The notes under the pieces are model-generated. The model saw nothing but the letters and a program-made list of their open reading frames with translations. It made no database searches and was not told the origin of the DNA. Both the position numbers and the translations under genes were made by a program. Positions 36,620 through 63,935 of a stretch of DNA of 64,000 bases are shown piece after piece; the stretch's first letter is position 1, and each line of letters starts with the position of its first letter. Origin of the DNA: a bacterium (lineage in GTDB: Bacteria; Patescibacteriota; Microgenomatia; UBA1400; UBA12108); contig JBDRPO010000016.1 in assembly GCA_043827085.1 (NCBI GenBank), forward strand, positions 42,752 through 106,751. The letters run 5' to 3'.

Positions 36620-37072
36620 ATGACACAAGTATCTAAACATAAACTCCAGCCAGAAATGACGACATTAATTTATGGTGAATTTTGTGGCTTTCTTTCCAAA
36701 ATCGATTCAAATAGTGGTGTAAGTCAATTTCTCGACGATTTTCTCACTTCCACGGAGAAAATAATGCTAAGTAAAAGATTTATGATCATGGTTTTCCTCA
36801 TGCGAGGCCATTCTGTCGAACATATTAAAAACACCCTACATGTTAGCAATTCAGCAGTCATGAGTGTGAATAGTTGGTTTAAAAACGCCAGCTCCACGAC
36901 TAAACAATCTCTAATTCGACTTAATCAAGAGAAAAATTTGGAAAAGCTTTTTGATCAAGTAGAGTCAATACTCGATAAGCTACCACCTGGAAAATATCGC
37001 GACTGGCACAAAGTGGGCAAAGAAAAATTTGCTCGTCTGAAAACTCGTCAATTAATAGATCGATTACGTTAA
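36620..37072 (+). CDS. TrpR/YerC-YecD-family HTH DNA-binding protein
   Basis: LTSTEKIMLSKRF...GHSVEHIKNTLHVSNSAV is a Trp-repressor-like HTH. Confidence 0.5.
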   Translation: MTQVSKHKLQPEMTTLIYGEFCGFLSKIDSNSGVSQFLDDFLTSTEKIMLSKRFMIMVFLMRGHSVEHIKNTLHVSNSAVMSVNSWFKNASSTTKQSLIRLNQEKNLEKLFDQVESILDKLPPGKYRDWHKVGKEKFARLKTRQLIDRLR

Positions 37073-47823: not shown

Positions 47824-47896
47824 TGCCGGGTCGCTAATGGTAAGCAGCGTGACTCTGAATCACGTAATCTAGGTCCGAATCCTAGCCCGGCAACCA
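47824..47896 (+). tRNA. tRNA-Gln (anticodon CUG) candidate with atypical features
   Basis: Cloverleaf by eye: acceptor UGCCGGG/CCCGGCA with U1-A72 as in bacterial tRNA-Gln, U8, D-loop with GG, and anticodon stem CGUGA/UCACG with loop CUCUGAA (U33, CUG, A37). The T-arm is CUAGG-UCCGAAU-CCUAG and CCA is encoded. Irregular points are C55 instead of U55 and a 3-bp D-stem with a 2-nt connector. Confidence 0.45.
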
Positions 47897-48008
47897 ACTA
47901 GTGCAACCCGAGAGGCCGTGACGCCTCAAACAGACTAATGAGTCCTACTAATTTGTCGAAATCTCCTCAAACTCCTGCAACCGCGAAAATCATCGGAAAC
48001 TTGAGGAA

Positions 48009-48341
48009 ATGCGATATACTCATATCATGTTTAACCAGAGTGTGTACTTTGAGGAAGCTAACGCCAAGAGGATATTTTGCTGCCTTGCCGAACCGGATAG
48101 CACCATCAAAAAGATTGTTATTATGTCGCACGGCTTTCGCGGATCCTCTATTGGTCCCGCCAGGCAGTTTGTTGATTTCGAGCAGGTACTCACCAAAAAT
48201 GGGTACTCGGTCCTCCGCTTTGACCAACCAAACTGTGGCAATTCTGAGGGTGACTTTCTCCAGTCTTCATTCAATGAATGGGTAGCCACCATTTCCCACC
48301 GAAGTGGCTGGAGATCCCGCAGGATGAGCAGGCATTTATGA
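48009..48341 (+). pseudogene. Truncated alpha/beta-hydrolase gene fragment (N-terminal ~95 aa only)
   Basis: IVIMSHGFRGSSIGPARQFVDFEQVLTKNGYSVLRFDQPNCGNSEGDF is the N-terminus of an alpha/beta hydrolase (e.g. dienelactone hydrolase or peptidase-like). The frame breaks before the nucleophile elbow, and the downstream 48278-48475 ORF is in another frame. Confidence 0.5.
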
Positions 48342-48488
48342 AATTTATGAAAGAGGTTGATACTCTTATTGCCGGTCCTATCCCGCTGGAGGGTGAAGCC
48401 TGCCAGTTCTGTAAATACCGGCATGTGAACGAACAGTATCAAGAGTCATCCGGCGAGAATAACTTGCCGTTTTAGAGGAACTTGACGG

Positions 48489-49046
48489 TCAAAGCTGGTT
48501 TGCCAGGTATTTTACCAAAACTTCAATCTTTCCATTATCATCAATCGAGAGCTTCATCACACTGCCAACTCGCTTTCTTGTTGAGTATGCTGCCCCTGGG
48601 TTAAGTATTAGCAAATTACCATACTTTTTAATAACGACTTCGTGAAAGTGTCCAAATACGCATACGTTTACTTTATTATGCAACTGATCTTTTAGCCTAG
48701 TTAGCTGCATATGTAAAGCTATGCTTTTTAGCTTGAATGCCTTGCTGATTAAATACTCAGCATATTGAATAGCTTTACGGCTTGTTTTATGCACCAGCAT
48801 AATCTTCAAGGGCCCAATCGTGAGATGCTCTACATCTCGTAAATTGTACTTCTCCCTATCGGACTGTTTGTTCCCCATAACCGCAACAACAGGAGCAATA
48901 TTCTCTAACTTTTTAAACTCTGACTTATCGCCGATGTCCCCAGCATGCAAAATCATCGAAACGTCGGAAAAGAAATTAATTATGTCGGGAGCTAACTTAT
49001 TACACTTGGTAAAATGAGTATCTGCAATTACCCCAATTATTTTCAT
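48489..49046 (-). CDS. YfcE/MJ0936-like metallophosphoesterase
   Basis: Calcineurin-fold motifs are present (IADTH, HAGDIGD, GN, GHFH). It is the last gene of the minus-strand operon. Confidence 0.8.
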   Translation of the reverse strand: MKIIGVIADTHFTKCNKLAPDIINFFSDVSMILHAGDIGDKSEFKKLENIAPVVAVMGNKQSDREKYNLRDVEHLTIGPLKIMLVHKTSRKAIQYAEYLISKAFKLKSIALHMQLTRLKDQLHNKVNVCVFGHFHEVVIKKYGNLLILNPGAAYSTRKRVGSVMKLSIDDNGKIEVLVKYLANQL

Positions 49047-50842
49047 TTAAGGTTGCTCGCGTTGCTCTCTAATTTATTCGCAATCTCAATCAACAAGTCG
49101 AAATCCTCAACTTTTCGAAATCTTGAGTCAACAACATTAAGACCGTTATAAGCTCCAATCAAAGCTCCAGTTATCCCTGCAATACCGTCAGTATTGCCAC
49201 CCCGAGCTTCAATTAGCTGTTTATCCCAAGATAAACCGGTCAATCTTTTCTTTTCTTCGACGGTATCCTGACGATAAGAATTGGCCGATAGTAGTATTGG
49301 TTTTGCGAATATACTCGGGTATGATAAAAAGTAAAATAATGCCAATGGCACTGTCTGCCAAACAGGGGAACCAGTACCATAAGTTACGGTAGCTCTCTTT
49401 ACATCGGTATCTCCTCTAATCGCCTGCTGAATATTTTTAACTAATATATTGACTCTTTTATTATCACTTCCATATTTAGTAATAATAAACTCTAAACTTT
49501 TTTGAGCCGAGGACTGTGGATTTTCGTTATTTTGTAAATAATGTATAAGTATGGCTATAAATACGTTCGCAGCTTTAGAAACTGAGGAATTATGTGTTAA
49601 GGACGCTTCCATCTCTGAATATTGCGCAATATCATTTATATCGTTGAAAAATAGTCCTATTGGAATAACTCGATATATCGATGAACAGGATTCTGTATTT
49701 GTAGATCCAGACTTATCAATTGCTACCCCCATACGTAATTTGTTGGCTGCAGATAGCGAAGTTGGTCCAGGCCATCTAGCATATTCTTTATCTTGACAAT
49801 CTTTGGCCCACTTTATAAGTGTATCCACTCTTGAGTCAACATTATACCCACCATCTTTAATAAGGTCTTTGGTTACATCAGTGAGCATCCTAGTGTTGTC
49901 TGTATAATACCCCGCGTTCAAGTGGCTAAAATATGGATGCTTAGCATTCGTTTGAAAGCCTTCGATACGACCCCTATTCATTGCAATAAATTCTTTACCC
50001 TCAATACCGGCAGCTGGGAATCCAAGTGAGTCTCCCACAGCAAATCCTACTAATGCCCCTCCAATTTTGTTTAATGGATCGTTATTGTGATACGACCTCT
50101 CCATTCTCTGCTCTAAGTGGAATAATAATGAAGCATCGCTGGTATATGCCCTCCCTACAAATAATTTTGACAACCACGGATACACACAAAACAATTTAAT
50201 TTCAGATTTAACATCGGCCTTTACCTGTAAATAGCAATCCATTAGAAATAAGGCAAAGGTAGCCTGGAGGCCTGTATCCACAAAGCAAATATTATCTTCC
50301 ATTCCAACTATTGCCCGTAATTCTCTAGTCATGGAAGTATGTAAGGCTCTAAGGTCACTATTAGACTCTAATATCATGCCAAGCTCTGTGGAGTAAGCCT
50401 GTATAAAGTCTTTCCAATTCTTAGCTTGTAGAGCTGCACTATTTACAACACTAAATAGCTTCAAATAATTCTCTTGAGATCCCAAATTTTTTCTAGACAA
50501 TGACATTTTTAGTACTCTCGTACTATCATTTCCGGGGTAGAAAACCTTTGCATCATTCAACAAAAACACATGCTTCTTCCCATCATTTAACAAGTCGTTT
50601 TTGAACTTTGTTATATGTTGATTTAGATTTTTTGCTTTTAGGGCAGATTGTCTTGGAATCTTTAGATTTAGTAACGTCTCTAATTTCTTTACGAATTTAG
50701 TCGGGTACTTATATGTCCATACGCTAAGAGCATCCTCGACTTTGGTAACATCAGTATCTACTTTGGCAATGCAAGCCCTAATCAGAGCCAGCATGTCTTG
50801 TGAATAAGTCAATAGTGTTTCAGTGTTTGGAGTTTTGTCCAT
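49043..50842 (-). CDS. Two-domain protein: unknown alpha-helical N-terminal domain (~270 aa) + ADP-ribosylglycohydrolase (ARH/DraG-like) domain with atypical metal-site residues
   Basis: ARH motifs are present: GALVGFAVGDSLGFP, GYYTDNTRM (canonical YTDDT) and GGNTDGIAGITGALIGAYNGL (canonical GGDTDT). Confidence 0.6.
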   Translation of the reverse strand: MDKTPNTETLLTYSQDMLALIRACIAKVDTDVTKVEDALSVWTYKYPTKFVKKLETLLNLKIPRQSALKAKNLNQHITKFKNDLLNDGKKHVFLLNDAKVFYPGNDSTRVLKMSLSRKNLGSQENYLKLFSVVNSAALQAKNWKDFIQAYSTELGMILESNSDLRALHTSMTRELRAIVGMEDNICFVDTGLQATFALFLMDCYLQVKADVKSEIKLFCVYPWLSKLFVGRAYTSDASLLFHLEQRMERSYHNNDPLNKIGGALVGFAVGDSLGFPAAGIEGKEFIAMNRGRIEGFQTNAKHPYFSHLNAGYYTDNTRMLTDVTKDLIKDGGYNVDSRVDTLIKWAKDCQDKEYARWPGPTSLSAANKLRMGVAIDKSGSTNTESCSSIYRVIPIGLFFNDINDIAQYSEMEASLTHNSSVSKAANVFIAILIHYLQNNENPQSSAQKSLEFIITKYGSDNKRVNILVKNIQQAIRGDTDVKRATVTYGTGSPVWQTVPLALFYFLSYPSIFAKPILLSANSYRQDTVEEKKRLTGLSWDKQLIEARGGNTDGIAGITGALIGAYNGLNVVDSRFRKVEDFDLLIEIANKLESNASNLK

Positions 50843-50845
50843 AAA

Positions 50846-52147
50846 TTACCTGTACGGAGGATCGGGATATTCTTCGACAGTTAAATGACCTGTGGTGGAA
50901 TCCCCGTCGCTAAAAATATAATATGAACTAGGAGGAAAGTAGCTATCGGGGTTTACCCCCAACTCTTCCATTACTTCTTTAAATATTCTCTTTACTATTC
51001 GTTGCAATACGTTTACCTGTGTAGGGTATAAACTTGCAAGAGCAATAATAATCTCTTCAAGCGAATGATATCCAATCCTATGGTCATAAAATGTACTGTA
51101 CTCTATCGGGATTGTATTTTGTGGGACACGGCCCCCCGCAATCTTAGATTCTTTTGGGTTATCTGCTGGTAGACCAATCTTCTTACGATACTCGGGATTA
51201 ACAGAAGCTGCCTGCAAATCTCGATATATAAATCTCGTAATTTGCCAGTCACTATCAAGTTCTATTAATGTATTTTGCGTGTGTGCTTCGAGTAAGATGC
51301 CGTATTTGAATGCAATAAACAACACGTTACTTATCATTGGTCTAGCGACTTTTTCTTCAAAAAATTTCTCCGGGGATAACCCAGAAAAATTAACCAACTG
51401 CTTAATAATTAGTGTATGTCCTGGGTTTCTAAAGTCTGGAGAATATAAACTAAACACAGGCATGAGATATTTACCCGATTGGTTGGTTGGGCTAGGATTT
51501 ACTAAGCGAAAAATGTTGCCGAAACTACTATCTAAGCAAGATGTTCCTAACGACATGGGTTCAGGCAAGTACCCGAATGTAGCCGGTAGATTATCAGTCT
51601 TCGAGATTTTTATAAATTCACCACTCATATAATGGCTTTGAATTGCAGACACTTCTGTCAATGCCCTGGGCAACCTGCCCAATTTTTTCCCTGATAAGTC
51701 CACCTTTATCATGTATGGCTTACCATCCAGAGACGTAATTAATGTTCTAGTAGATGATGTAGGACATGCTTTCACGTAGCCAGAGATTCTTTCTTTCGCA
51801 AATTCTCCAATTCCTCTCTCCGTGTACACGTCTACCATATCCGGATGTATGAAGAAGTGTACCTGCTTATTATCAAGTATTATGTTATTAAGTTCTGGTA
51901 CATCCTGAGTTTGATATAAATTCACAGCCTTTTTTGGAAGCGAAACATAGGGCAAATCAAACTCATCGTCTCCATCGAGAGGACGAAACTGTCTCGATAC
52001 TTCCGACCTATGTCTGTATGAATGGTAAGCTCCCTTATTAACATATCTTTCTGTATAAATCAAAAGCGACAATGGATCGTCAAAAGAAGTAATCCACTCT
52101 TCATTATGGCTCGGAGTATTGGGAGTTAGTATTGATTTGTTGCTCAT
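50846..52147 (-). CDS. Hypothetical protein, possibly kinase-like or IucA/IucC-like adenylating fold
   Basis: Motifs CPTSSTRTL, KPYMIKVDLSGKKLGRLPRALTEVS and EAHTQNTLIELDSDWQITRFIYRDLQ. The assignment is not secure. Confidence 0.4.
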   Translation of the reverse strand: MSNKSILTPNTPSHNEEWITSFDDPLSLLIYTERYVNKGAYHSYRHRSEVSRQFRPLDGDDEFDLPYVSLPKKAVNLYQTQDVPELNNIILDNKQVHFFIHPDMVDVYTERGIGEFAKERISGYVKACPTSSTRTLITSLDGKPYMIKVDLSGKKLGRLPRALTEVSAIQSHYMSGEFIKISKTDNLPATFGYLPEPMSLGTSCLDSSFGNIFRLVNPSPTNQSGKYLMPVFSLYSPDFRNPGHTLIIKQLVNFSGLSPEKFFEEKVARPMISNVLFIAFKYGILLEAHTQNTLIELDSDWQITRFIYRDLQAASVNPEYRKKIGLPADNPKESKIAGGRVPQNTIPIEYSTFYDHRIGYHSLEEIIIALASLYPTQVNVLQRIVKRIFKEVMEELGVNPDSYFPPSSYYIFSDGDSTTGHLTVEEYPDPPYR

Positions 52148-52150
52148 AAA

Positions 52151-53683
52151 TTAGTCATGGTTTTCTAGATTCTCCACTAACCAGTCGAACTTACGCCTAG
52201 TTGTGTCTGTGGCTCTGACAAGCGGTAGTTCTTTAAGCTTACCACTTAACTCACCCATTTCGTCTAGAATCGCAGTCCGATCACCCGGCTCAGAATTAGG
52301 ATTTATTCCTTTGTACTCAAGCTCTGCTTGAGAAAGAGTTTTATGTTCGCCCGTTTGACAGAAATCAGCCGAAAGATTGTAATACCTCCCTGATTGTCTA
52401 TTGTGTAAGAACAGATAGAACTTTTTTCGCCTGGTTGTACCTACATACTCCACAGGTTTTCCTAGTCGACTTTCTTGGATAGACTTAATCACCCCCAAAT
52501 CTCGAGAATCGTATGTTCGATTCACCTTAATCATTTCTTCAGGCCTACTCATAACTTGATCTTGACCGTTAGCACTAGTAGGGAGCATCTCCTTTTTCCC
52601 TTTAATCTTTATAAAGTATTTGGGTTTACGGGGATGTCTCACGATCACAAAAGCTTCTTCAAGGGTAGATCCAGCATCACGATATCCGTAGTTGTCAAAG
52701 TAATATGTCCAAAATGATACACTCTCCATACCAGGTACAAGCTCAACATCGCCAAACAATCCAGATTTACAATAAGAGGCGACAATTTCAAGAAAAGTAG
52801 ATGGATCTTGAGGGGTTAACTCAAACTTCTTTTCTAATTCTTCTCCCTCCAGTTCATCAGTCATTTCCCACCCCAATAGTGAATGGAGCGGTTCACTTTG
52901 ATCTTCAGAATGGTTGAGTTCCGCAGAAGTTTGTTTTGGCAGTAGCTTAACTGTTTCCCGGTATTGGGCTTCGACTTTGCCTTGCAATGTTCCGATTGGG
53001 ATTGCTCCTTCTTTCGTTAATTTTTCGATAATAGGTACCGTAAGTTGGTCTGTTTCGGGAGAGTACTTTACCTCACCTTTCATCATCCCCTCTGTTCCCA
53101 TAACCAATGCGCTATTAGGTTTGCCAGCAATAAAAGCGTAATAGTGTATGTTCTTGTCTAGCGTCAATCGTAACTGCAGATCACTTTCAATTGGATGAAA
53201 ATGGGATCGTTCATATACAATGCCCAATAATGGCTCCAGCGCTTCAAAATCAAACTCGGTAAACAACATTTTCAGCAACGCTGGATCAAACTCGGACTCT
53301 GTAGACGTTTGCAGATAATTTAGAAACCCCAGAGGGTTATTTAATATTCGCAACACTGTCTCATAAGTTGTGGTTAGTCGGTCCTTAGTCACTCTATCTT
53401 GTTGGTGACCTTTAATTTCCATATGTACAACGTCTTGATCTGCAATAGTGATTGCGCCTGGATTCAAATTCGACAAATATCTCCTTGTCCTCACCAAACC
53501 ACCTTGATTCAAGCTGACACCGTTACCAAAATAAATGTTTTCGGTAACTGGGAAGCATCCGCCATCCAGTAACAATGTTTGTTGCGTTAACTCTGGTAAA
53601 ACATCACCAATTCTTTCTCCGACCTCGTTTGGAATCAAAAATCTGATCTCTCTTCTACTGTTAAAAATGGTGTCTTCTTTCAC
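52151..53683 (-). CDS. Hypothetical protein with weak CYTH/VTC (triphosphate-tunnel)-like N-terminal domain and unknown C-terminal region
   Basis: Beta-strand motifs EIRFLIP, GLVRTRRY, MEIKG and LRLTLDKN are reminiscent of the TTM/VTC fold. The C-terminus has ...YNLSADF...SQAELEYKG. Low confidence. It is the first gene of the operon. Confidence 0.35.
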   Translation of the reverse strand: MKEDTIFNSRREIRFLIPNEVGERIGDVLPELTQQTLLLDGGCFPVTENIYFGNGVSLNQGGLVRTRRYLSNLNPGAITIADQDVVHMEIKGHQQDRVTKDRLTTTYETVLRILNNPLGFLNYLQTSTESEFDPALLKMLFTEFDFEALEPLLGIVYERSHFHPIESDLQLRLTLDKNIHYYAFIAGKPNSALVMGTEGMMKGEVKYSPETDQLTVPIIEKLTKEGAIPIGTLQGKVEAQYRETVKLLPKQTSAELNHSEDQSEPLHSLLGWEMTDELEGEELEKKFELTPQDPSTFLEIVASYCKSGLFGDVELVPGMESVSFWTYYFDNYGYRDAGSTLEEAFVIVRHPRKPKYFIKIKGKKEMLPTSANGQDQVMSRPEEMIKVNRTYDSRDLGVIKSIQESRLGKPVEYVGTTRRKKFYLFLHNRQSGRYYNLSADFCQTGEHKTLSQAELEYKGINPNSEPGDRTAILDEMGELSGKLKELPLVRATDTTRRKFDWLVENLENHD

Positions 53684-53961
53684 AATGATATATTGTAACC
53701 TATAGTCATCGCAAATACAACATCCACTATATCAAAGTATATCACCGCAAGTAAGCTATGTACCGTCCCATTTGTCTCAAATAGCCTGGAGAGTGAGACA
53801 CTACTAGTTGAGCTATAAGGATTGAAAGGTTCCAGACCTAGCTCCACAACATGCAAAATAAGACGGAATTATCCATCTTAATAAGTTCCTCACTTAAAAC
53901 CCAGAGCGTAAAGTCGTGGGAGTGTTATAAGTTAATGAGATTTTAAACTGGTTCTCCAAAT

Positions 53962-54174
53962 CTACCTCATCGCTTTGATGTGCATCACGATTCCGGCTAT
54001 GACAAACACCGCTCCCCATCGCACCGGGTGCGCTCCGGCGAGAGGGTAGGTGAGAAGAAATCCCGCGCCTATCCCCAGAAGCAAATGTGCGGTCGCGTTC
54101 TCTCCCGGGTGCTTGGCAAAGTACTTCACAGCTTTCTTACTTATCATTCTTACCTCCTTTGTACCTCTATCCAA
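53962..54174 (-). CDS. Small two-TM membrane protein (hypothetical)
   Basis: Hydrophobic 60-70 aa ORF (LLLGIGAGFLLTYPLAG...AVFVIAGIVMHI). No homology was recognised. Confidence 0.3.
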   Translation of the reverse strand: MDRGTKEVRMISKKAVKYFAKHPGENATAHLLLGIGAGFLLTYPLAGAHPVRWGAVFVIAGIVMHIKAMR

Positions 54175-54216
54175 TCATATCGGATGCGATATATCAACCA
54201 ATGCTAAAATATTCTC

Positions 54217-54669
54217 ATGGTTAAAGGTATCGACTACATTGGTGTTTCAGCCGGAGCCATGATAATCAACGATCAAGGACAGATCTTTCTCGCCCAGCGC
54301 GGGCAAAAAGCCAATAATGAACGAGGCTGCTGGGAGAATCCCGGTGGCAGTGTAGAGTTTGGGGAAAAACTGGCAGACGCCGTCAAGCGTGAAATCATGG
54401 AAGAATATGGAGCCGAGATCGAAATCATCAAACAATTCCCCGCTGAAGATCATTTGATTCCGGCCGAGCATCAGCATTGGGTTGCAACCACTTTCCTCGC
54501 GAAATTCAAGAAGGGGAGTGAGCCCAAAATAATGGAGCCAGACAAATGCTCGGCCATCGGCTGGTTTGATTTGAGCGCGCTACCCTCTCCACTCTCCATC
54601 ATTACCGAGCTAGATATTAAGCATCATGGCAAAGATGTATCAAACTTAGTTACCGATTTCCCAGTATAA
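54217..54669 (+). CDS. NUDIX hydrolase
   Basis: Nudix box GGSVEFGEKLADAVKREIMEEYG. Confidence 0.8.
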   Translation: MVKGIDYIGVSAGAMIINDQGQIFLAQRGQKANNERGCWENPGGSVEFGEKLADAVKREIMEEYGAEIEIIKQFPAEDHLIPAEHQHWVATTFLAKFKKGSEPKIMEPDKCSAIGWFDLSALPSPLSIITELDIKHHGKDVSNLVTDFPV

Positions 54670-54676
54670 TCGAGCC

Positions 54677-55528
54677 ATGTCTTGGCAACTATTTACCGCC
54701 ATCGGCGTATTGCTATATTCCGTAAACGGTCTTCTCCATCGTGTTCTCATGAAAGATCAGCATTCGGATCCGTATGCCCAAACAATCATGTTTGCGGGAC
54801 TAGTGGGGATATTTGGTTGGTTTATCCTCTGCTTCCGCGACATCTCTCTCCCGCCACTTACTCCGAATAATATTATTCTTCTCACCACCATTTCTATCCT
54901 GTCAGCTATCGGTGGAGTCTTTGCCTTTAAAGGTTTCAAGTATATTGAGGCCTCAGAGCACACCATCCTCCTCACTTCTTCCAAACTCTGGTCATTGCTC
55001 GGCGCCGTACTAATTTTAGGAGAAACCTTAACTTTCAAAAAATTACTCGGAGGACTTATTATCATTTCTGGGGTTTTGATTGCCGAGTGGCGCAAACACA
55101 AATTTGTCTTCAACACAGGTGCACTTTATGTACTCATCGCTGCCGCAAGTTACGCGCTTGGGGAAATACTCTCCTTTTTTGTCCTGCGTGACTTTGATAG
55201 TACTTCCTTTCTTGTCTTGAATTGTCTGATCATGGTAGTACTCATGCTCATAGCTAAGCCCAAGATAATCCCCAAATTTGCTTTTTATTCTAAACCAAAA
55301 AACTTAATTAACATTTTAATTGTCTCTTTCAACGACACTTTCGCCACACTCGCTGTCTTTTTCGCCTATCAGCTCGGTCGCAACGCCCTCCAAATTGGCC
55401 CTCTTATGGCCACTCAAACCATCGTCACCGTAATTCTCGCCCACATTTTCCTTCGCGAACGCGACAATCTTTTGCAAAAGTTTATTGGCGCCTCACTTGC
55501 CGTTATAGGGGCGATCATCGTGTTATGA
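54677..55528 (+). CDS. EamA/DMT-family transporter (second paralog)
   Basis: Ten TM helices with two EamA-like halves. Confidence 0.7.
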   Translation: MSWQLFTAIGVLLYSVNGLLHRVLMKDQHSDPYAQTIMFAGLVGIFGWFILCFRDISLPPLTPNNIILLTTISILSAIGGVFAFKGFKYIEASEHTILLTSSKLWSLLGAVLILGETLTFKKLLGGLIIISGVLIAEWRKHKFVFNTGALYVLIAAASYALGEILSFFVLRDFDSTSFLVLNCLIMVVLMLIAKPKIIPKFAFYSKPKNLINILIVSFNDTFATLAVFFAYQLGRNALQIGPLMATQTIVTVILAHIFLRERDNLLQKFIGASLAVIGAIIVL

Positions 55529-55584
55529 ATTTTATAGTCTCTATATTTGACTTACCTATAATAACTGGTATATCCTGATCTCAT

Positions 55585-56379
55585 ATGAATACAAAAAAAC
55601 TGTTGCTGCTAACGTTCCTAGTTATCTCTGTTTTTCTCTTTGCTCCCAAGCCATCAAAGGCCGTCGATTTCCAGGAAATATTTACCGCCGACGATTCATT
55701 CTTAGTTAGGCTTCAGGAAGAGCTTCAGTATTTTTTCGCCATTAAGTTAGAAAATAAAGTAGAAGTACTGGAGCAGCACGCAGAAAAACGCCTGACTATG
55801 GCTCAAGGTTACGCCGAGGCAGGTAATGGCGAAAAAGTCCAAAACCTCCTCCAAAATTATCTTCAGATTAAAGAAAAACAAAATAATTTACTGGGTAAAA
55901 CTGCGGGCGGGGAAGTATTAGGGGCAGTTGAAGAAAGAACCATCGAACAACAAAAAACCATGGAACAAATCAAGACAAAAATTGACGAAAATGGACAAGG
56001 GCAAGTCAGGCAAGTACAAGAACAAGTAGTCAATCAAGTCGCAGAGAGAATAGTCGTAGTCAATGGATCAGAGGGACAAAACGAATTCTTTCAAAAAGTT
56101 GAACACGTCTGGGCTCCAGGCACAGGTCCAGGAGGAACCGCCGGGGTAGTATACGAAGGAGGTTCCAAATTAATTTTTGCTCCAGGCACCTCAGCCGGAG
56201 GCAACGCAGGGTCCGACATCAAGACCGTAGAAGTCAAAACTGGTGGAGGTGAAGAGACTGGTTTACCCCCAGGAGTAACTGCCGGAGATGGCGACACAGC
56301 CCAAAATCATTATGCCCCAGGTACAACCGGTCCAGCAGATGGTAGTGGAGTCATGGATCCAGGTAAAATTGACAAGTAA
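55585..56379 (+). CDS. Secreted hypothetical protein with coiled-coil/Gln-rich region and APGT-type Gly/Pro repeats
   Basis: Signal peptide. Repeats APGTGPGGTAG / APGTSAGGNAG / APGTTGPADG. Confidence 0.45.
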   Translation: MNTKKLLLLTFLVISVFLFAPKPSKAVDFQEIFTADDSFLVRLQEELQYFFAIKLENKVEVLEQHAEKRLTMAQGYAEAGNGEKVQNLLQNYLQIKEKQNNLLGKTAGGEVLGAVEERTIEQQKTMEQIKTKIDENGQGQVRQVQEQVVNQVAERIVVVNGSEGQNEFFQKVEHVWAPGTGPGGTAGVVYEGGSKLIFAPGTSAGGNAGSDIKTVEVKTGGGEETGLPPGVTAGDGDTAQNHYAPGTTGPADGSGVMDPGKIDK

Positions 56380-56484
56380 TAGCTTATCAAAAGGCAAAAT
56401 TATGCCAGTCAAAAGCATCATCTGGCCCGCCATGCTCGTCTTCCAGGCTTTTCCCCTCTTGCATCTGTAAACGACAATCATGCA

Positions 56485-57081
56485 TTAAGTGTAGAAAAGC
56501 TTAGCTTTGACCAAGGCCGCGCGTTTACGTTCAGTAGTTACTTCTTGGATTTTGTTATATAGATCACGATCTTTAGCAATATGTCCTGAATTTACCCTCC
56601 ATAACTGATAAATGTCTTCAAGGAGTATGTTTATCTCTTCTATTTTAGTCGTGTCAGCCTCAGTAATGTCTTTCCACCGCTTGCTAAATTCTACTCTTTT
56701 CTCCGGATCTTTAAAGTCTAGGGGTCGAACTCTAGGTAGTTCCTCCCTTTCTTCAGGTTTATCCTTATTTAATTTAGCCTTCTTCCTGATCTCTTCTTTC
56801 CGTGCCCGTCTCGAGAGTTTAGTTAGTACAAACTGTTCGAGGAAATCCAATTTATTCCATTTATCATCACTATCAACTTGTAGACGGGTATGTTCAATTG
56901 CTAAGTTTACTAGCGGAATAAGAGGATGACACTCCAACATCGCCCCCGTCGCCAGATTCTCTCGATTTGCCCTATCCTCATCAGTTTCTTTTACTTTTGG
57001 TTGCAGTCTCTCTACCAACCCGCTCCACCACCCACCATTTTTACCTACAGAAACAGTCGTGCTATGAACAAGTTCCACCAT
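56485..57081 (-). CDS. Hypothetical protein (charged, helical)
   Basis: ORF with a Lys/Glu-rich central region. No recognisable domain. Confidence 0.4.
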   Translation of the reverse strand: MVELVHSTTVSVGKNGGWWSGLVERLQPKVKETDEDRANRENLATGAMLECHPLIPLVNLAIEHTRLQVDSDDKWNKLDFLEQFVLTKLSRRARKEEIRKKAKLNKDKPEEREELPRVRPLDFKDPEKRVEFSKRWKDITEADTTKIEEINILLEDIYQLWRVNSGHIAKDRDLYNKIQEVTTERKRAALVKAKLFYT

Positions 57082-57088
57082 ACGTGAA

Positions 57089-57640
57089 TTAATTTTCTAG
57101 GTCAGTAGGCATCGGCTCGGGCGGGAGAAATTCATCACCACCGTCTTTGGGAACGTACTGCTCAGCTTTGAGCCACTCCACGTACGTGCAACCCGTTGCC
57201 TCTTTTTTCTCGCGGTCCCAGCCTGCGGTAGAACACTTTTTCATTTTTTTGCCACTAGCTGTTGTATATAAAACAAGCTTCTTCCCACACTCTGGACAAT
57301 TTTCATCCAGCTTTTCTGTCGTACCATTGATCCACTCTATATAGTCACACCCCTCGGCTTTCTTGGTCTCCGCGTTCCACACATTGGTCGAACACTTTTT
57401 CATCTTTTTGCCAAACCTGGTCACGTTCAAGACTAGTGGTTTTCCGCACTTGGGGCATTTCTCGTCTAATTCTTTTGGTTGTACTTCAAGCCACTTTACA
57501 TAATCACAACCTTCATTTTTGTGTGTTTCCGGATTCCACGAGCCTTTTGAGCAGCGCTGCAACTGGCGGCCAGTCTTAGTTTCAGTGACTGGAGATAACT
57601 CGGCTCCACACTTTGGACATTTATCTTCCATGATTGTCAT
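57089..57640 (-). CDS. Protein of three tandem topoisomerase-type C4 zinc ribbons (YrdD-like)
   Basis: The module CP(K/E)CG..L....G....KCS...W.......GCDY..W is present three times. Confidence 0.65.
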   Translation of the reverse strand: MTIMEDKCPKCGAELSPVTETKTGRQLQRCSKGSWNPETHKNEGCDYVKWLEVQPKELDEKCPKCGKPLVLNVTRFGKKMKKCSTNVWNAETKKAEGCDYIEWINGTTEKLDENCPECGKKLVLYTTASGKKMKKCSTAGWDREKKEATGCTYVEWLKAEQYVPKDGGDEFLPPEPMPTDLEN

Positions 57641-60691: not shown

Positions 60692-61924
60692 CTATTCGTA
60701 TCTGAGTGCCTCAATTGGCTGGAGCGATGCTGCTTTGCGGGCTGGATACCAACCAAAAATTATTCCGATTATAGTAGAGACAGCAAACGCCAAAAATACT
60801 GATGAAACCGAAACTACAAACAATCCAGAAGTACTCGTTGCATATATATAAGCAAGAAGAATACCTAAAAGTATTCCGATAAGCCCACCAGTAAAGGTAA
60901 GGATTACCGCCTCCATCAAGAATTGCGTAATAATCAAACGATCCTTGGCACCCAATGCTTTGCGTAGTCCAATCTCCCGCGTTCGCTCAGTCACTGTCAC
61001 AAGCATAATATTCATAATTCCTATTCCTCCCACGAGTAGTGATATAGCCGCCACTCCCGAAAGTAAGCTCGTCAATGTTCCCGTTACTGAGCTCACCGCA
61101 TTTAACATATCTTGTTGGTTGCGGATCGAAAAATCAGCTTTTGTTGTATCAGAGATATGATGTCTCTCCATCAGAGTGTATCCTATTTGATTCATTGCCT
61201 GGGTCATAACATCTTCACTATTTGTCTCTACAATTATCGAACTTAGGTATTTCACCCCAAACAGTTTCTTTTGTGCCGTAGAGAGAGGGATGTAAATGAT
61301 ATCGTCTTGGTTTGACATACCACTGCCACCTTTTTGTTCCGTCACTCCAATTATAGAGAAATTGAGTGCTCCAATCCGGATAGACTGTCCCACCGCATCG
61401 GTATCAAGCGCATTATCTCCCCATAGACCAGTGAGTACTGTGGGGCCAATTATCGCTACGTTCGTATTTGCATCAAGATCATTCTTTGTGATGTTGCCAC
61501 CTGTTGCCACTTTAATATTTCTTGCACTCAAATATTCTGGGGTTATTCCTGTAATAGAAGTATTTGTATTACTATCACCGTAAACAACTTGTGAACGAGC
61601 AGTATAAGTCGGTAAAACCGTTTTAAGCGCAGTTAATGTTTGGTCAGAGGAGAGAGCTTTGGCATCATCATAAGTCAAAGTTGTTCCCCCCCCTTGAGCT
61701 CCTCTCACCAGTCCAGTCCTCTGTGCTCCCGGACTCACGGTCAGGATATTTGACCCAAGAGATTGAATTTGAGCAGTAATAGATTTCTGGCTTGCTTCAC
61801 CAATTGAAAGAAGTGCAATCACACTGCCTATACCTATCACGATCCCAAGCATTGCAAGTCCTGTTCTCATTTTATTGAGGAGTAGGGTACCGACACTTTC
61901 GCTAAATAGTTCTTTGTAATCCAT
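60692..61924 (-). CDS. ABC transporter permease, MacB/FtsX-like
   Basis: One TM, a large periplasmic domain, then the three-TM FtsX domain (REIGLRKALGA). Confidence 0.85.
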   Translation of the reverse strand: MDYKELFSESVGTLLLNKMRTGLAMLGIVIGIGSVIALLSIGEASQKSITAQIQSLGSNILTVSPGAQRTGLVRGAQGGGTTLTYDDAKALSSDQTLTALKTVLPTYTARSQVVYGDSNTNTSITGITPEYLSARNIKVATGGNITKNDLDANTNVAIIGPTVLTGLWGDNALDTDAVGQSIRIGALNFSIIGVTEQKGGSGMSNQDDIIYIPLSTAQKKLFGVKYLSSIIVETNSEDVMTQAMNQIGYTLMERHHISDTTKADFSIRNQQDMLNAVSSVTGTLTSLLSGVAAISLLVGGIGIMNIMLVTVTERTREIGLRKALGAKDRLIITQFLMEAVILTFTGGLIGILLGILLAYIYATSTSGLFVVSVSSVFLAFAVSTIIGIIFGWYPARKAASLQPIEALRYE

Positions 61925-62649
61925 TATTTTTTATTCCCCGACAGACTGAATTTATGCAAATTGTCGCCAATTAATTTCCCATCTTTGATAGTAATAACTC
62001 TCTTGGCATGCTCGGCGATATCTAGCTCATGTGTAATTATCACCATGGTGTGTCCATCTTTGTTTAATTTATCAAATATCTCCATTATTTCTTCAGCCTG
62101 CGCAGAAGCAATATTGCCGGTTGGTTCATCAGCTAAAATCATGGCTGGGTTCATGGAGAGCGCTCGTGCTATAGCTACTCGTTGTTGTTGTCCACCAGAG
62201 AGCTGATTAGTTAAATGATAAATTCTGTCCTGAAGTCCCACAAGTGTTAGGTATTTAACCGCGCGCGCTTTGCACTCTGCAACTGGTATATCACCGTAAC
62301 GCATAGGCAACATGACATTTTTCAAACAACTCGTACGAGGTAATAGATTATATGCCTGGAAAACAAATCCGATTTTTCGGTTACGAATATCTGCTAGCTC
62401 ATCACCTGACATTTTCTCTACGTTTTGACCATCTAGTTTGTAAACTCCACTTGTTGGTTGGTCTAGACATCCAAGTATGTGCATCAATGTACTCTTCCCC
62501 GATCCCGATGGACCCATGATTGCCACATACTCTCCTCGCTTAATATGAAAACTAACTTTATCTAGTGCGACAGTCTGCACTTCGCCAACCTGGTAAATTT
62601 TACTAATATCTTTGATATCTATTATGGTGCTAGCATTTCTATTAGTCAT
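61924..62649 (-). CDS. ABC transporter ATP-binding protein (MacB/LolD-type)
   Basis: GPSGSGKSTL, LSGGQQQRVAIARAL and ILADEPTGN. Confidence 0.9.
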   Translation of the reverse strand: MTNRNASTIIDIKDISKIYQVGEVQTVALDKVSFHIKRGEYVAIMGPSGSGKSTLMHILGCLDQPTSGVYKLDGQNVEKMSGDELADIRNRKIGFVFQAYNLLPRTSCLKNVMLPMRYGDIPVAECKARAVKYLTLVGLQDRIYHLTNQLSGGQQQRVAIARALSMNPAMILADEPTGNIASAQAEEIMEIFDKLNKDGHTMVIITHELDIAEHAKRVITIKDGKLIGDNLHKFSLSGNKK

Positions 62650-63935
62650 TAAAATCCTGGCATGCCCATACCACCTTGCCGAGTGTTGTCAAAAGCTGAA
62701 GTAGTATTACTATTTTTTACGCTAATGCTACTGCCAGTAACGATAGCATCCCCCTCAGATAGTCCACTGACAATAACTGTTTGAGTGTCATTTGTCGCTC
62801 CAGTTTCCACGGAAGTCGTGACAGGTTTTTTATCTTTCATGATTTGTATAGTACTCACTCCATCAGTTGTAGTCAGTGCGGTAGAAGCAACTAGCAATAC
62901 ATCTGTCTCTATGTTCGTTATTATCGTCGCCGAAACCGACATATTGGGATATATTGGCAACTCTGTTGGATCCATCAGGATAGTCGCCGGGTAAGAACTC
63001 ACTCCGGAACTAGATGTGCCAGACACATCGACCGCCAATACCTTGCCCGTAAATGACTTGTCACTATGTGCATCCATTGTAATATTTACCTTTTGCCCAG
63101 CCTGAACTTTTGGAGCATCTACCTCAGTCAAGCTTACTTTTGCCTGATACTGATTGTTGGCCGATCGCACAAAGCCTATTGTCTGGCTACTAGCATAAGT
63201 TGATCCTGTCGTTGTGCTCTGACTTGTACTTGCTGTCATGGTGCTACCCGCGGTAAGCGTGAGATTATTGATGATCCCGTCAGCTGGCGCCACGATCGAA
63301 CCACTTACATCTTGGTAATCAAGATACGCTGCTTGTTGACTAATTTTTGCAGCACTGATAACCGAATCCGCATTAGCGAATTCGGCAGCAGATACATCGA
63401 AAGCAAGTTTTGCTTGCGTCACCACCTCTTCTTTTTGGTGTTTTTCATCATCTGTGAGTCCTGTCAAATTTTCAATATGACTAATAGTATCCTCAGCATC
63501 GATGATTGATTGTCTATCTTTCCAAATCTGGATAGAAGTATCTTGTTTATCTTTCATCGCTGATACGACTGCTTCTTGAGTCCTAAGATATGCTTGCCAA
63601 GCACTCGATCTTCGCTCTATTCCATCAGAATCTAGAGTAATATCCAAAATTTTTTGTCCTTTTTTAACAAGATCGCCATTCTTTACGTAGACTTTAGTTA
63701 CCGTCCCACTAGCTTTTGTTGAAATATTAGTTGTATTACCAGCCGTTATCGACCCAGTTGCCGCAATACTCGTGATTAGCGTCCCCTTGATCACAGTTCC
63801 CGTCTGATAGGCCACAGCACTCGTTTTAACGAATAGTTTTGTATACCCGAAGTATCCCCCTATCAAAAGCACCGCCACCAAAGCCAATTTGATATACCAC
63901 CTCGCATTTTTAAGCCAGTTCATTATCTTAATCAT
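62649..63935 (-). CDS. HlyD/MacA-family periplasmic adaptor (membrane fusion) protein
   Basis: N-terminal TM, coiled-coil hairpin, lipoyl and beta-barrel regions, with a Thr/Ser-rich C-terminus. Confidence 0.75.
   Translation of the reverse strand: MIKIMNWLKNARWYIKLALVAVLLIGGYFGYTKLFVKTSAVAYQTGTVIKGTLITSIAATGSITAGNTTNISTKASGTVTKVYVKNGDLVKKGQKILDITLDSDGIERRSSAWQAYLRTQEAVVSAMKDKQDTSIQIWKDRQSIIDAEDTISHIENLTGLTDDEKHQKEEVVTQAKLAFDVSAAEFANADSVISAAKISQQAAYLDYQDVSGSIVAPADGIINNLTLTAGSTMTASTSQSTTTGSTYASSQTIGFVRSANNQYQAKVSLTEVDAPKVQAGQKVNITMDAHSDKSFTGKVLAVDVSGTSSSGVSSYPATILMDPTELPIYPNMSVSATIITNIETDVLLVASTALTTTDGVSTIQIMKDKKPVTTSVETGATNDTQTVIVSGLSEGDAIVTGSSISVKNSNTTSAFDNTRQGGMGMPGF

Follow-up and report, generated by a model that had tools for sequence, protein, structure and literature searches.

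How did four AT-rich enzyme genes come to stand downstream of a tRNA-Gln gene in a bacterium of the candidate phyla radiation (CPR), in a block that carries no integrase? The locus that raises this question lies in a 64,000-nt stretch of contig JBDRPO010000016.1 (GenBank assembly GCA_043827085.1, positions 42,752 to 106,751), hereafter called the window, to whose own numbering all coordinates refer unless a related locus is named. An original prediction, made from the letters and open reading frames (ORFs) of the window, had suggested that positions 47824-53960 form a decayed or cryptic island integrated at the tRNA gene, with a truncated gene at the near end and an imperfect repeat of the tRNA 3′ end at the far one. 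This suggestion is supported here by a relic of the tRNA 3′ end, a displaced native flank, foreign cargo and a gap in synteny, the distal limit being corrected from 53960 to 53850: the 5,930 nt from 47897 to 53826 are probably the integrase-less remnant of an island that entered the 3′ end of tRNA-Gln(CTG) by site-specific integration. Elements of this kind are already well known; the interest of the present one lies in its demonstration in the CPR, in the way its attachment (att) site was recovered, and in the rare protein families of its cargo.

Synteny with Related Genomes

Relatives were chosen by a scan of species-representative genomes anchored on prolyl-tRNA synthetase (ProRS), with best ProRS identities of 82-85%, and the same scan identifies the host of the window as a Microgenomates/Woesebacteria-like CPR bacterium. 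The relatives conserve the order glutamyl-tRNA synthetase (GluRS), ProRS, tRNA-binding protein, HD, MazG, DUF8173 and tRNA-Gln(CTG), followed later by a Zn-ribbon gene (57089-57640 in the window); at two more distant loci, L012 and L078, tRNA-Gln precedes DUF8173. Between tRNA-Gln and the Zn-ribbon gene lie 1 kb in L013, 1.4 kb in L070, 3.4 kb in L010, 3.8 kb in L004, and 9.2 kb in the window. Alignment to related genomes, which had been proposed as a check on the original prediction, reveals syntenic flanks and none of the four AT-rich genes in any syntenic relative, and the tRNA-to-NUDIX interval is 0.7 kb long in L004 versus 6.3 kb in the window. The right flank, comprising genes for a 70-aa membrane protein, a NUDIX hydrolase and the Zn-ribbon protein, has orthologues of 67-91% identity in the same neighbourhood of the relatives.

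The Displaced tRNA-Gln 3′ End

The tRNA-Gln-like gene noted earlier at the start of the block is recognized by both ARAGORN and Rfam (Table 1), and it is the sole tRNA that ARAGORN finds in the window. Its last 24 nt (47871-47894) constitute the proximal, attL-side copy of the repeat, while a decayed copy of the T-arm and the 3′ acceptor strand lies in the same orientation at the far end of the block. Against the window's own tRNA 3′ end, the repeat matches at 17 of 25 positions (17/24 over the 24-mer), the ~68% with which it had been credited; the site is real, although it lies at 53827-53851, one base off the position first assigned to it. Five further sites in the window match the same tRNA end at 16 of 25 positions. 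The att-like nature proposed for the repeat, marginal against the window's own tRNA alone, emerges from comparison with the tRNA-Gln 3′ 24-mers of relatives, to which 53827-53850 is identical at 19/24 positions (L004 and L070) or 18/24 (L013 and L015). A score of 19 was reached in 0 of 400 shuffles of 47897-57000 with nine distinct queries (P < 0.0025), and the relic is the only site with at least 18/24 matches on either strand of the 64 kb besides the tRNA itself. In 512 kb of the relatives' DNA, two spurious 18/24 sites occur and none of at least 19.

The likeness continues beyond the tRNA. The 3′ half of the L078 tRNA-Gln together with its downstream flank aligns without gaps to 53828-53879 at 39 of 52 positions, giving a local score of 26 where shuffles give 12.0±1.3 (maximum 16) and real window sequence reaches at most 15. 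The corresponding tRNA-Gln and flank of L012 score 20 against the relic region, and blastn matches the relic to the L078 tRNA end with an E-value of 0.003 in 2.3 Mb. The flank common to the window and L078 reads ATGCAAAA(A/T)AAGACG and then runs into a hairpin, which a terminator scan places at 53859-53880 and which is downstream of the convergent gene 53962-54174 as well. This flank similarity carries weight because it stands in exact register with the tRNA-like part.

The two copies also differ. On the one hand, no CCA is encoded in the relic and its T-loop starts with the canonical GGTTC, as in most relatives; TTC stands at this site in the relic and in all 11 relatives compared. On the other hand, the present tRNA-Gln has a T-loop of TCCGAAT (47872-47880), with C at the near-universal U55 position, and encodes CCA, a feature shared only with L009 and L013 among these relatives. 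Such a distribution is as expected if an incoming element supplied the present 3′ end. The relic begins at the T-stem, which is one of the crossover sub-sites described for islands in tRNA genes (tDNAs; Hudson, Lau and Williams, 2015; PMC4383910). It overlaps no conserved protein domain, as the sole ORF across it (53680-53856, 58 aa) has no Pfam match, and a search for further direct or inverted boundary repeats found only short pairs at chance level.

That the repeat is a product of chance (17/25 matches, a 6-nt run, no repeat in relatives) had been entertained and was dropped after the relatives' tRNA-Gln ends and flanks were compared. As judged from these alignments, the relic appears to be a genuine displaced 3′ end of the ancestral tRNA-Gln, beyond chance, still sitting on its native flank and terminator. 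Since it is continuous and in register with the ancestral flank, the segment 47897-53826 would have entered at the tRNA and parted it from its ancestral 3′ end and terminator. The case shows that comparison with the tRNAs and flanks of relatives can recover an att relic so decayed that the host's own tRNA does not reveal it, and this relative-based rescue should be useful for finding other old, integrase-less islands.

Table 1. Features of the tRNA-Gln locus in the window and positions of related gene clusters in other genomes.
Feature	Position	Strand	Evidence or remark
tRNA-Gln(CTG), intact	47824-47896	+	ARAGORN; Rfam RF00005, 48.6 bits; comparison with tRNA-Gln of 11 relatives
tRNA-hydrolase spacer	47897-48008	+	DNA-level homologue of the L009 spacer with one 53-nt indel (pairwise DNA alignment); GC of 47897-48294, 0.465
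5′ fragment of alpha/beta-hydrolase gene	48009-48341	+	GC 0.46; tblastn 75%, E 5e-45
Orphan segment, 181 nt	48295-48475	+	GC 0.49; joins hydrolase breakpoint to operon; ORF 48278-48475 (65 aa)
Cargo gene 4, YfcE/MJ0936-type metallophosphoesterase, 185 aa	48489-49046	-	Metallophos_2 3.6e-24; TIGR00040 yfcE 2.3e-20
Cargo gene 3, fusion protein, 599 aa	49043-50842	-	Residues 1-260 phosphoribosyltransferase-like; 262-571 ADP-ribosylglycohydrolase
Phosphoribosyltransferase-like domain of the fusion, residues 1-262	50057-50842	-	Unannotated, ~250 aa
Cargo gene 2, short IucA/IucC-like (siderophore-synthetase-like) ligase, 433 aa	50846-52147	-	Pfam FhuF 7.6e-7
Cargo gene 1, two triphosphate-tunnel (VTC/CYTH-like) halves, 510 aa	52151-53683	-	Pfam VTC 1.7e-8
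AT-rich region upstream of operon	53684-53826		GC 0.37; consensus promoter-like sites only
Decayed tRNA-Gln 3′ end (T-arm and 3′ acceptor strand; attR-like)	53827-53850	+	Same orientation as tRNA; no encoded CCA
Native flank of ancestral tRNA	53851-53880		ATGCAAAATAAGACG and terminator-like hairpin; collinear with post-tRNA-Gln flank of L078 and L012
70-aa membrane protein, native right flank	53962-54174	-	67% to L004; GC 0.535
NUDIX hydrolase, native right flank	54217-54669	+	75% to L004; Pfam NUDIX; GC 0.479
IucC-tunnel-cupin cluster, L082	8351-13315		Apparently CPR genome
IucC-tunnel-cupin cluster, L083	10001-13809		Apparently CPR genome
IucC-tunnel-cupin cluster, L086	10001-15004		Apparently CPR genome
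IucC-tunnel-cupin cluster, L088	3325-10773		Apparently CPR genome
IucC-tunnel-cupin cluster, L089	9214-14591		Apparently CPR genome
IucC-tunnel-cupin cluster, L191	83-3891		Apparently CPR genome

The Left Edge of the Block

At the DNA level, the window is homologous to L009 from the end of the tRNA through the spacer to ~48294, where the homology stops abruptly. L009 carries a full-length gene for a 245-aa alpha/beta-hydrolase directly after its tRNA-Gln, and residues 3-95 of this protein are matched at 75% identity by 48027-48305; the homology ends at ~48294 (codon ~93), beyond which the ORF continues without homology to its stop at 48341. The truncation of the hydrolase gene, which the original prediction had read from the window, is confirmed by this orthologue, found by the search for a full-length copy that had been suggested at the time. 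The fragment itself matches NCBIfam hydr1/2_PEP (3e-7) and, weakly, Pfam Hydrolase_4. No 3′ part of the gene occurs anywhere in the 64-kb window, which rules out a simple insertion into the hydrolase gene. The identity of spacer and hydrolase to L009 (~75%) is level with that of ProRS and far above that of the adjoining DUF8173 (36%).

The 181-nt orphan segment finds no match in PDB, Pfam, NCBIfam or any of the fetched loci. The ORF at 48278-48475, described earlier as an out-of-frame remnant, does exist, whereas its identity as a remnant is not confirmed: among 5.8 billion proteins it matches only itself, in the NCBI annotation of the same metagenome-assembled genome (MAG), and it shows a weak match to the C-terminus of Cas4 (E 0.03). 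The left junction was also searched for an internal att relic, which would point to tandem integration; none is present, the best candidate (13/24) falling under background.

Base Composition

The lowest GC content in the 64 kb is that of the 5.5 kb starting at 48501, at 0.390, where the mean is 0.465 (sd 0.024), and the tetranucleotide distance to the window average is highest at 48-50 kb. The profiles of both measures, suggested together with the original prediction, are thus not uniform, and the shift to AT-rich DNA that it had reported is present, except that the AT-rich part extends from 48476 to 53826 and hence starts ~580 nt past the tRNA instead of right after it. The four cargo genes (GC 0.38-0.41) hold ranks 2, 3, 5 and 9 from the lowest GC among 70 genes, and their GC at third codon positions (GC3) is 0.33-0.41, compared with 0.48-0.64 in the nearest upstream core genes, from GluRS to DUF8173. 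Equally low GC3 values (0.32-0.37) are found elsewhere in the window, at 36620-37072, 55585-57081 and 60692-63935; the genes concerned include those of an ABC/MacB transporter cluster with which the window ends. Because other scattered genes are equally low in GC, composition is by itself only suggestive.

Proposed Integration and Later History

We infer the following integrase mechanism and sequence of events. A circular element would have carried an attP site with a copy of the tRNA T-arm and acceptor 3′ strand, and a tyrosine-type integrase would have recombined it with the tRNA gene. The element's copy would now complete the functional tRNA (47871-47896, with encoded CCA), while the host's original 3′ end would have been pushed 5.93 kb downstream to 53827-53850, where it would have decayed by ~20-25% while still resting on its native flank. 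The integrase and any mobility genes would later have been lost, which would have fixed the island in place, and the AT-rich operon would have come from a distant donor of lower GC, probably also of the CPR.

No recombinase domain was found in a Pfam scan of the block ORFs (the four genes, two left-end ORFs and ORF 53680-53856), nor did tblastn with eight mobile-element proteins from related loci (two serine recombinases, two tyrosine integrases, an rve transposase, a terminase and two homing endonucleases) return a match in the 64 kb, a search that a recombinase unrelated to the queries would escape. The lack of an integrase or recombinase stated in the original prediction thus holds on both counts, and it is for this reason that the block is filed as a remnant and not as an active island.

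The interior of the island is a mosaic, as its tRNA-proximal segment is host-like and common to L009; it consists of this shared hydrolase segment, the 181 orphan nt, and the AT-rich operon. Two histories may account for this, and we hold them about equally probable. Either a single element brought both parts and was later damaged, or an older hydrolase-bearing element was already in place when the operon replaced its interior, deleting the 3′ end of the hydrolase gene together with the integrase. The AT-rich DNA reaching as far as the relic favors the former; the mosaic composition and the abrupt breakpoint favor the latter.

The locus provides a case of tRNA-targeted integration at nucleotide resolution in a Microgenomates (CPR) genome, a member of a group of tiny genomes. 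A full-text literature search found no precisely mapped tRNA island in Microgenomates.

Weighing the Alternatives

Several observations weigh against a site-specific island. With no integrase, the mechanism is read from the boundary signature alone, and an empty-site allele was not recovered for this species. The tRNA-proximal 580 nt are host-like in composition, and the hydrolase gene stands beside tRNA-Gln in L009 too, so that this segment could be vertically inherited, unlike an island acquired in one step; downstream of the L009 tRNA, the available 6.7 kb yielded no distal relic. The repeat itself shares no exact run longer than 6 nt with the window's own tRNA, and its 17 matches are reached by 2.7% of shuffles. 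The similarity of the flank to L078, when taken without the tRNA part, has a score (15) that is ordinary genome-wide, and the closer relatives L004, L070 and L013 do not have the L078-type flank. As for the cargo, a literature search found no paper linking its protein families, IucC and CYTH among them.

Instead of tRNA-targeted integration, illegitimate or homologous recombination, following DNA uptake for instance, might have brought the block into a variable region prone to recombination. In that case the relic would be an unrelated leftover, such as that of a deleted second copy of tRNA-Gln or the scar of a much older element, and would abut the block by coincidence. In line with such an entry, the tRNA-Gln to Zn-ribbon interval differs in every relative and contains homing endonucleases, a serine recombinase and accessory genes, the block holds no integrase, and the left AT-rich edge, which falls at the truncated gene and the 181 orphan nt and not at the tRNA, resembles an illegitimate junction. 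The right AT-rich edge, however, falls exactly at the relic, from which no host-like DNA separates it (GC 0.37 as far as 53826), and the strand, side and end-fragment configuration of the relic fit the product of an integrase, a coincidence that would be improbable within 9 kb. Acquisition without any site specificity leaves unexplained why the foreign DNA ends at a properly oriented tRNA end fragment still joined to the ancestral flank. We therefore judge this explanation unlikely; it also overlaps the two-step version of the integration history, in which the operon replaced the interior of an older element.

It is very improbable that the block is native, a vertically inherited operon whose AT-richness has causes of its own, such as expression level or amino-acid content, and which was lost in all the sampled relatives. 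The shift in GC is modest (0.39 vs. 0.465) and GC3 is equally low elsewhere in the window, as such an origin would allow, but the four genes are absent from every relative with conserved flanks, no homologue above 51% identity exists among the 5.8 billion proteins even though MAGs with 82-85% ProRS identity are public, and an insertion is marked by the tRNA fragment and the displaced native flank. Equally improbable is a chimera of assembly or binning, with the conserved tRNA as its joint. Two Logan contigs of SRR26275510 do end inside the tRNA, 37 nt apart, at 47853 (L002 end) and 47891 (L001 end), and tRNA genes are typical branch points in metagenome graphs, so that contig ends are to be expected at a conserved tRNA. 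An independent Logan contig nevertheless extends unbroken from within the tRNA across the hydrolase fragment, operon and relic and into the native genes, reaching the ABC transporter; moreover, the spacer and hydrolase next to the tRNA match L009, and the right-flank genes are syntenic in relatives (67-91%). A chimera is unlikely precisely because one contig spans the block and both flanks match the synteny of relatives. The contig ends in the tRNA are in themselves compatible with related tRNA-Gln genes or with strain variants in the sample.

Gene Flux in the tRNA-Gln to Zn-Ribbon Interval

The interval between tRNA-Gln and the Zn-ribbon gene is a hot spot of gene flux (47897-57088 in the window, 2137-6534 in L004, 1-6742 in L009 and 3680-5971 in L070). 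Mobile-type genes occur in it: L004 has a LAGLIDADG endonuclease there, L070 a GIY-YIG gene together with a zeta-toxin-like kinase, and L009 a large serine recombinase with a terminase-like gene. In the window, the genes at 54677-57081 (EamA, DUF5667-like and a 198-aa protein) have no orthologue at the locus in relatives, and the window may hold additional acquired segments.

Comparison with Known Integrated Elements

Islands within genes for tRNA and tmRNA are defined and mapped by an intact tDNA at one end and a displaced end fragment at the other, and the Islander criteria further specify a length of 2-200 kb and an integrase gene (Hudson, Lau and Williams, 2015; PMC4383910). The present island, probably a remnant of such an element, shares with Islander islands the intact tRNA at one end, the same-orientation 3′ fragment downstream that starts from the T-stem, a length (5.9 kb) within 2-200 kb, a sporadic occurrence among relatives, and an anomalous cargo composition, albeit in 48476-53826 only and not in 47897-48475. 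In short, everything that Islander looks for is present save the tyrosine integrase gene. The block further departs from these islands in its fragment, which is ~20-25% diverged instead of near-exact, in its mosaic make-up with a truncated gene, and in its CPR host.

Degenerate or "anchored" islands and cryptic prophage remnants are characterized by the loss of the integrase, decayed att repeats, and genes truncated at the edge beside a tRNA. The block resembles them in its immobilized foreign cargo next to a tRNA, its decayed repeats, its truncated edge gene and its lack of mobility genes, and differs from them in carrying no phage, conjugation or virulence genes and in bearing a four-enzyme operon of rare family. 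As to a phage origin, no DNA match was found in 50,697 phage records, PHROGs returned only generic ADP-ribosylglycohydrolase (ARH) and esterase matches, and IMG/VR contained no IucC-like gene and nothing beyond generic ARH domains.

The Four-Gene Cargo Operon

The cargo (48489-53683) consists of four intact, co-oriented and tightly packed minus-strand genes whose products keep the conserved catalytic motifs. The 510-aa product of the first gene matches PF09359 with 34.7 bits (cut-off 23), and alignment reveals conserved charged strands in both halves, with E282-x-E284-x-K286 in the second; no solved structure is detectable by sequence. On this Pfam match and the ExExK-type motif, it is classed as a putative tandem triphosphate-tunnel protein. 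It shares with CYTH/VTC enzymes the above-cut-off VTC match and the ExExK-type strands, and differs from them in having two tunnel domains per chain and in lacking the SPX and membrane parts of eukaryotic VTC.

The 433-aa ligase matches PF06276 (FhuF, C-terminal region) with 30 bits, and its profile matches AsbB, IucA, AcsD and IucC in PDB, aligning to residues 282-459 of AsbB (3to3) with an E-value of 7e-7. Residues S132-T-R-T135, H289-x-Q291-N292 and D310 do not vary among 20 homologues. What it has in common with the nonribosomal-peptide-synthetase-independent siderophore (NIS) synthetases IucA/IucC, AsbB and AcsD is the C-terminal catalytic region with the ATP-site motifs. Unlike these enzymes, it falls short of the full-length architecture (~580-650 aa with PF04183) by ~170 aa, yields no PF04183 (IucA_IucC) match even at E-values up to 10, stands in no siderophore cluster with a transporter or hydroxylase, and invariably has a tandem triphosphate-tunnel protein as its partner.

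The third gene encodes a fusion. Residues 262-571 agree with both the fold and the family profile of ARHs, and the GDS and TDNT motifs are conserved. The usual C-terminal metal motif of ARHs is GGD-TD-T. In all seven members of the present family, the corresponding motif is GGN-TD-GIA (residues 548-555, ~49190-49210), and the metal site or the substrate may differ from the usual. This GGN-TD-G motif and the fused 260-aa domain set the cargo protein apart from MJ1187, ARH3, DraG and Tri1. The N-terminal domain is predicted to adopt a type-I phosphoribosyltransferase (PRT)-like fold with a conserved VDTG(M/L)QGT motif. Neither Pfam nor PDB yields a sequence match to it, and its 44 representatives among 1.84 billion clusters contain it alone (~250 aa) or fused to an ARH domain.

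From domain chemistry, the NIS-like ligase would adenylate a carboxylate and couple it to a nucleophile, the tandem tunnel protein would handle tri- or polyphosphate, the PRT-like/ARH fusion would bind and cleave a (phospho)ribosyl linkage, and YfcE would cut a phosphodiester. That these activities add up to an ATP- and ribose-phosphate-centered pathway acting on a small molecule or surface polymer is a quite doubtful conjecture drawn from that chemistry. It is possible, if still short of probable, that the operon represents an undescribed CPR pathway that makes or remodels a phosphoribosylated or nucleotide-derived metabolite or surface polymer and that is moved between episymbionts on tRNA-Gln-targeting elements. 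A bolder reading of the operon as a new nucleotide-signal or ADP-ribose-based immunity module finds no positive support, and no cargo protein matches a known defense system in PADLOC-DB 2.0 better than an E-value of 0.005. The cargo families are flagged as horizontally mobile and are therefore probably adaptive. The short IucA/IucC-like ligase, the tandem tunnel protein and the PRT-like domain belong to little-known families and are candidates for biochemistry.

Cargo Homologues in Other Genomes

Homologues of the cargo are few. Among the 5.8 billion proteins, the IucC-like ligase has 21 matches and the fusion seven full-length relatives, and the best non-self homologues of the cargo reach 51% (at unrelated loci in other genomes) and 49% (on a contig too short to place). 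In all six readable contexts, the IucC-like ligase is followed directly by a tandem-tunnel protein of ~505 aa; five of these tunnel proteins were compared with that of the window and are 34-40% identical to it. The pair is accompanied by a small cupin in 6/6 contexts (Table 1), in a conserved and hitherto undescribed cluster of the order ligase, tunnel protein, cupin, and by a WbsX-type glycosyltransferase in 4/6, and occasionally by an undecaprenyl-diphosphate-synthase-like prenyltransferase, a histidine phosphatase, a NUDIX protein or a 220-aa His-rich protein. Two such loci lie near integrases, large serine recombinase or TraG-like genes. In the window, the order of the two genes is inverted, and it is the fusion and YfcE that accompany them.

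The fusion has its own contexts. Its 49% homologue lies on a 3.9-kb JGI contig between a gene for a 429-aa protein and a Metallophos_2 gene, in the same order as in the window, whereas other relatives adjoin NMT1-type ABC transporters and integrases or transposases. No fusion adjoining IucC, VTC or YfcE was found in 80 metagenome loci. The idea that the N-terminal domain of the fusion corresponds to the 220-aa partner of the IucC/VTC pair was rejected, as hhalign gave it a probability of 0.3%.

Three further observations concern these families at larger distances. Distant relatives of the fusion (33%) occur in other phyla, including an Acidobacteriota MAG, beside NMT1-type ABC transporters and with integrases and transposases nearby (L094 4218-10104; L095 5079-9755). 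The NUDIX genes that accompany IucC/VTC in L083 and L086 are distantly similar to the one at 54217-54669 in the window (E 6e-4), probably by coincidence. Finally, a 407-aa IucA/IucC protein with 28% identity to the cargo ligase is encoded on the Methylocystis iwaonis plasmid NZ_CP143317.1 (L096, 18192-20636), one of the methanotroph plasmids on which such homologues adjoin an MFS transporter, a differing context for a minimal NIS-like enzyme.

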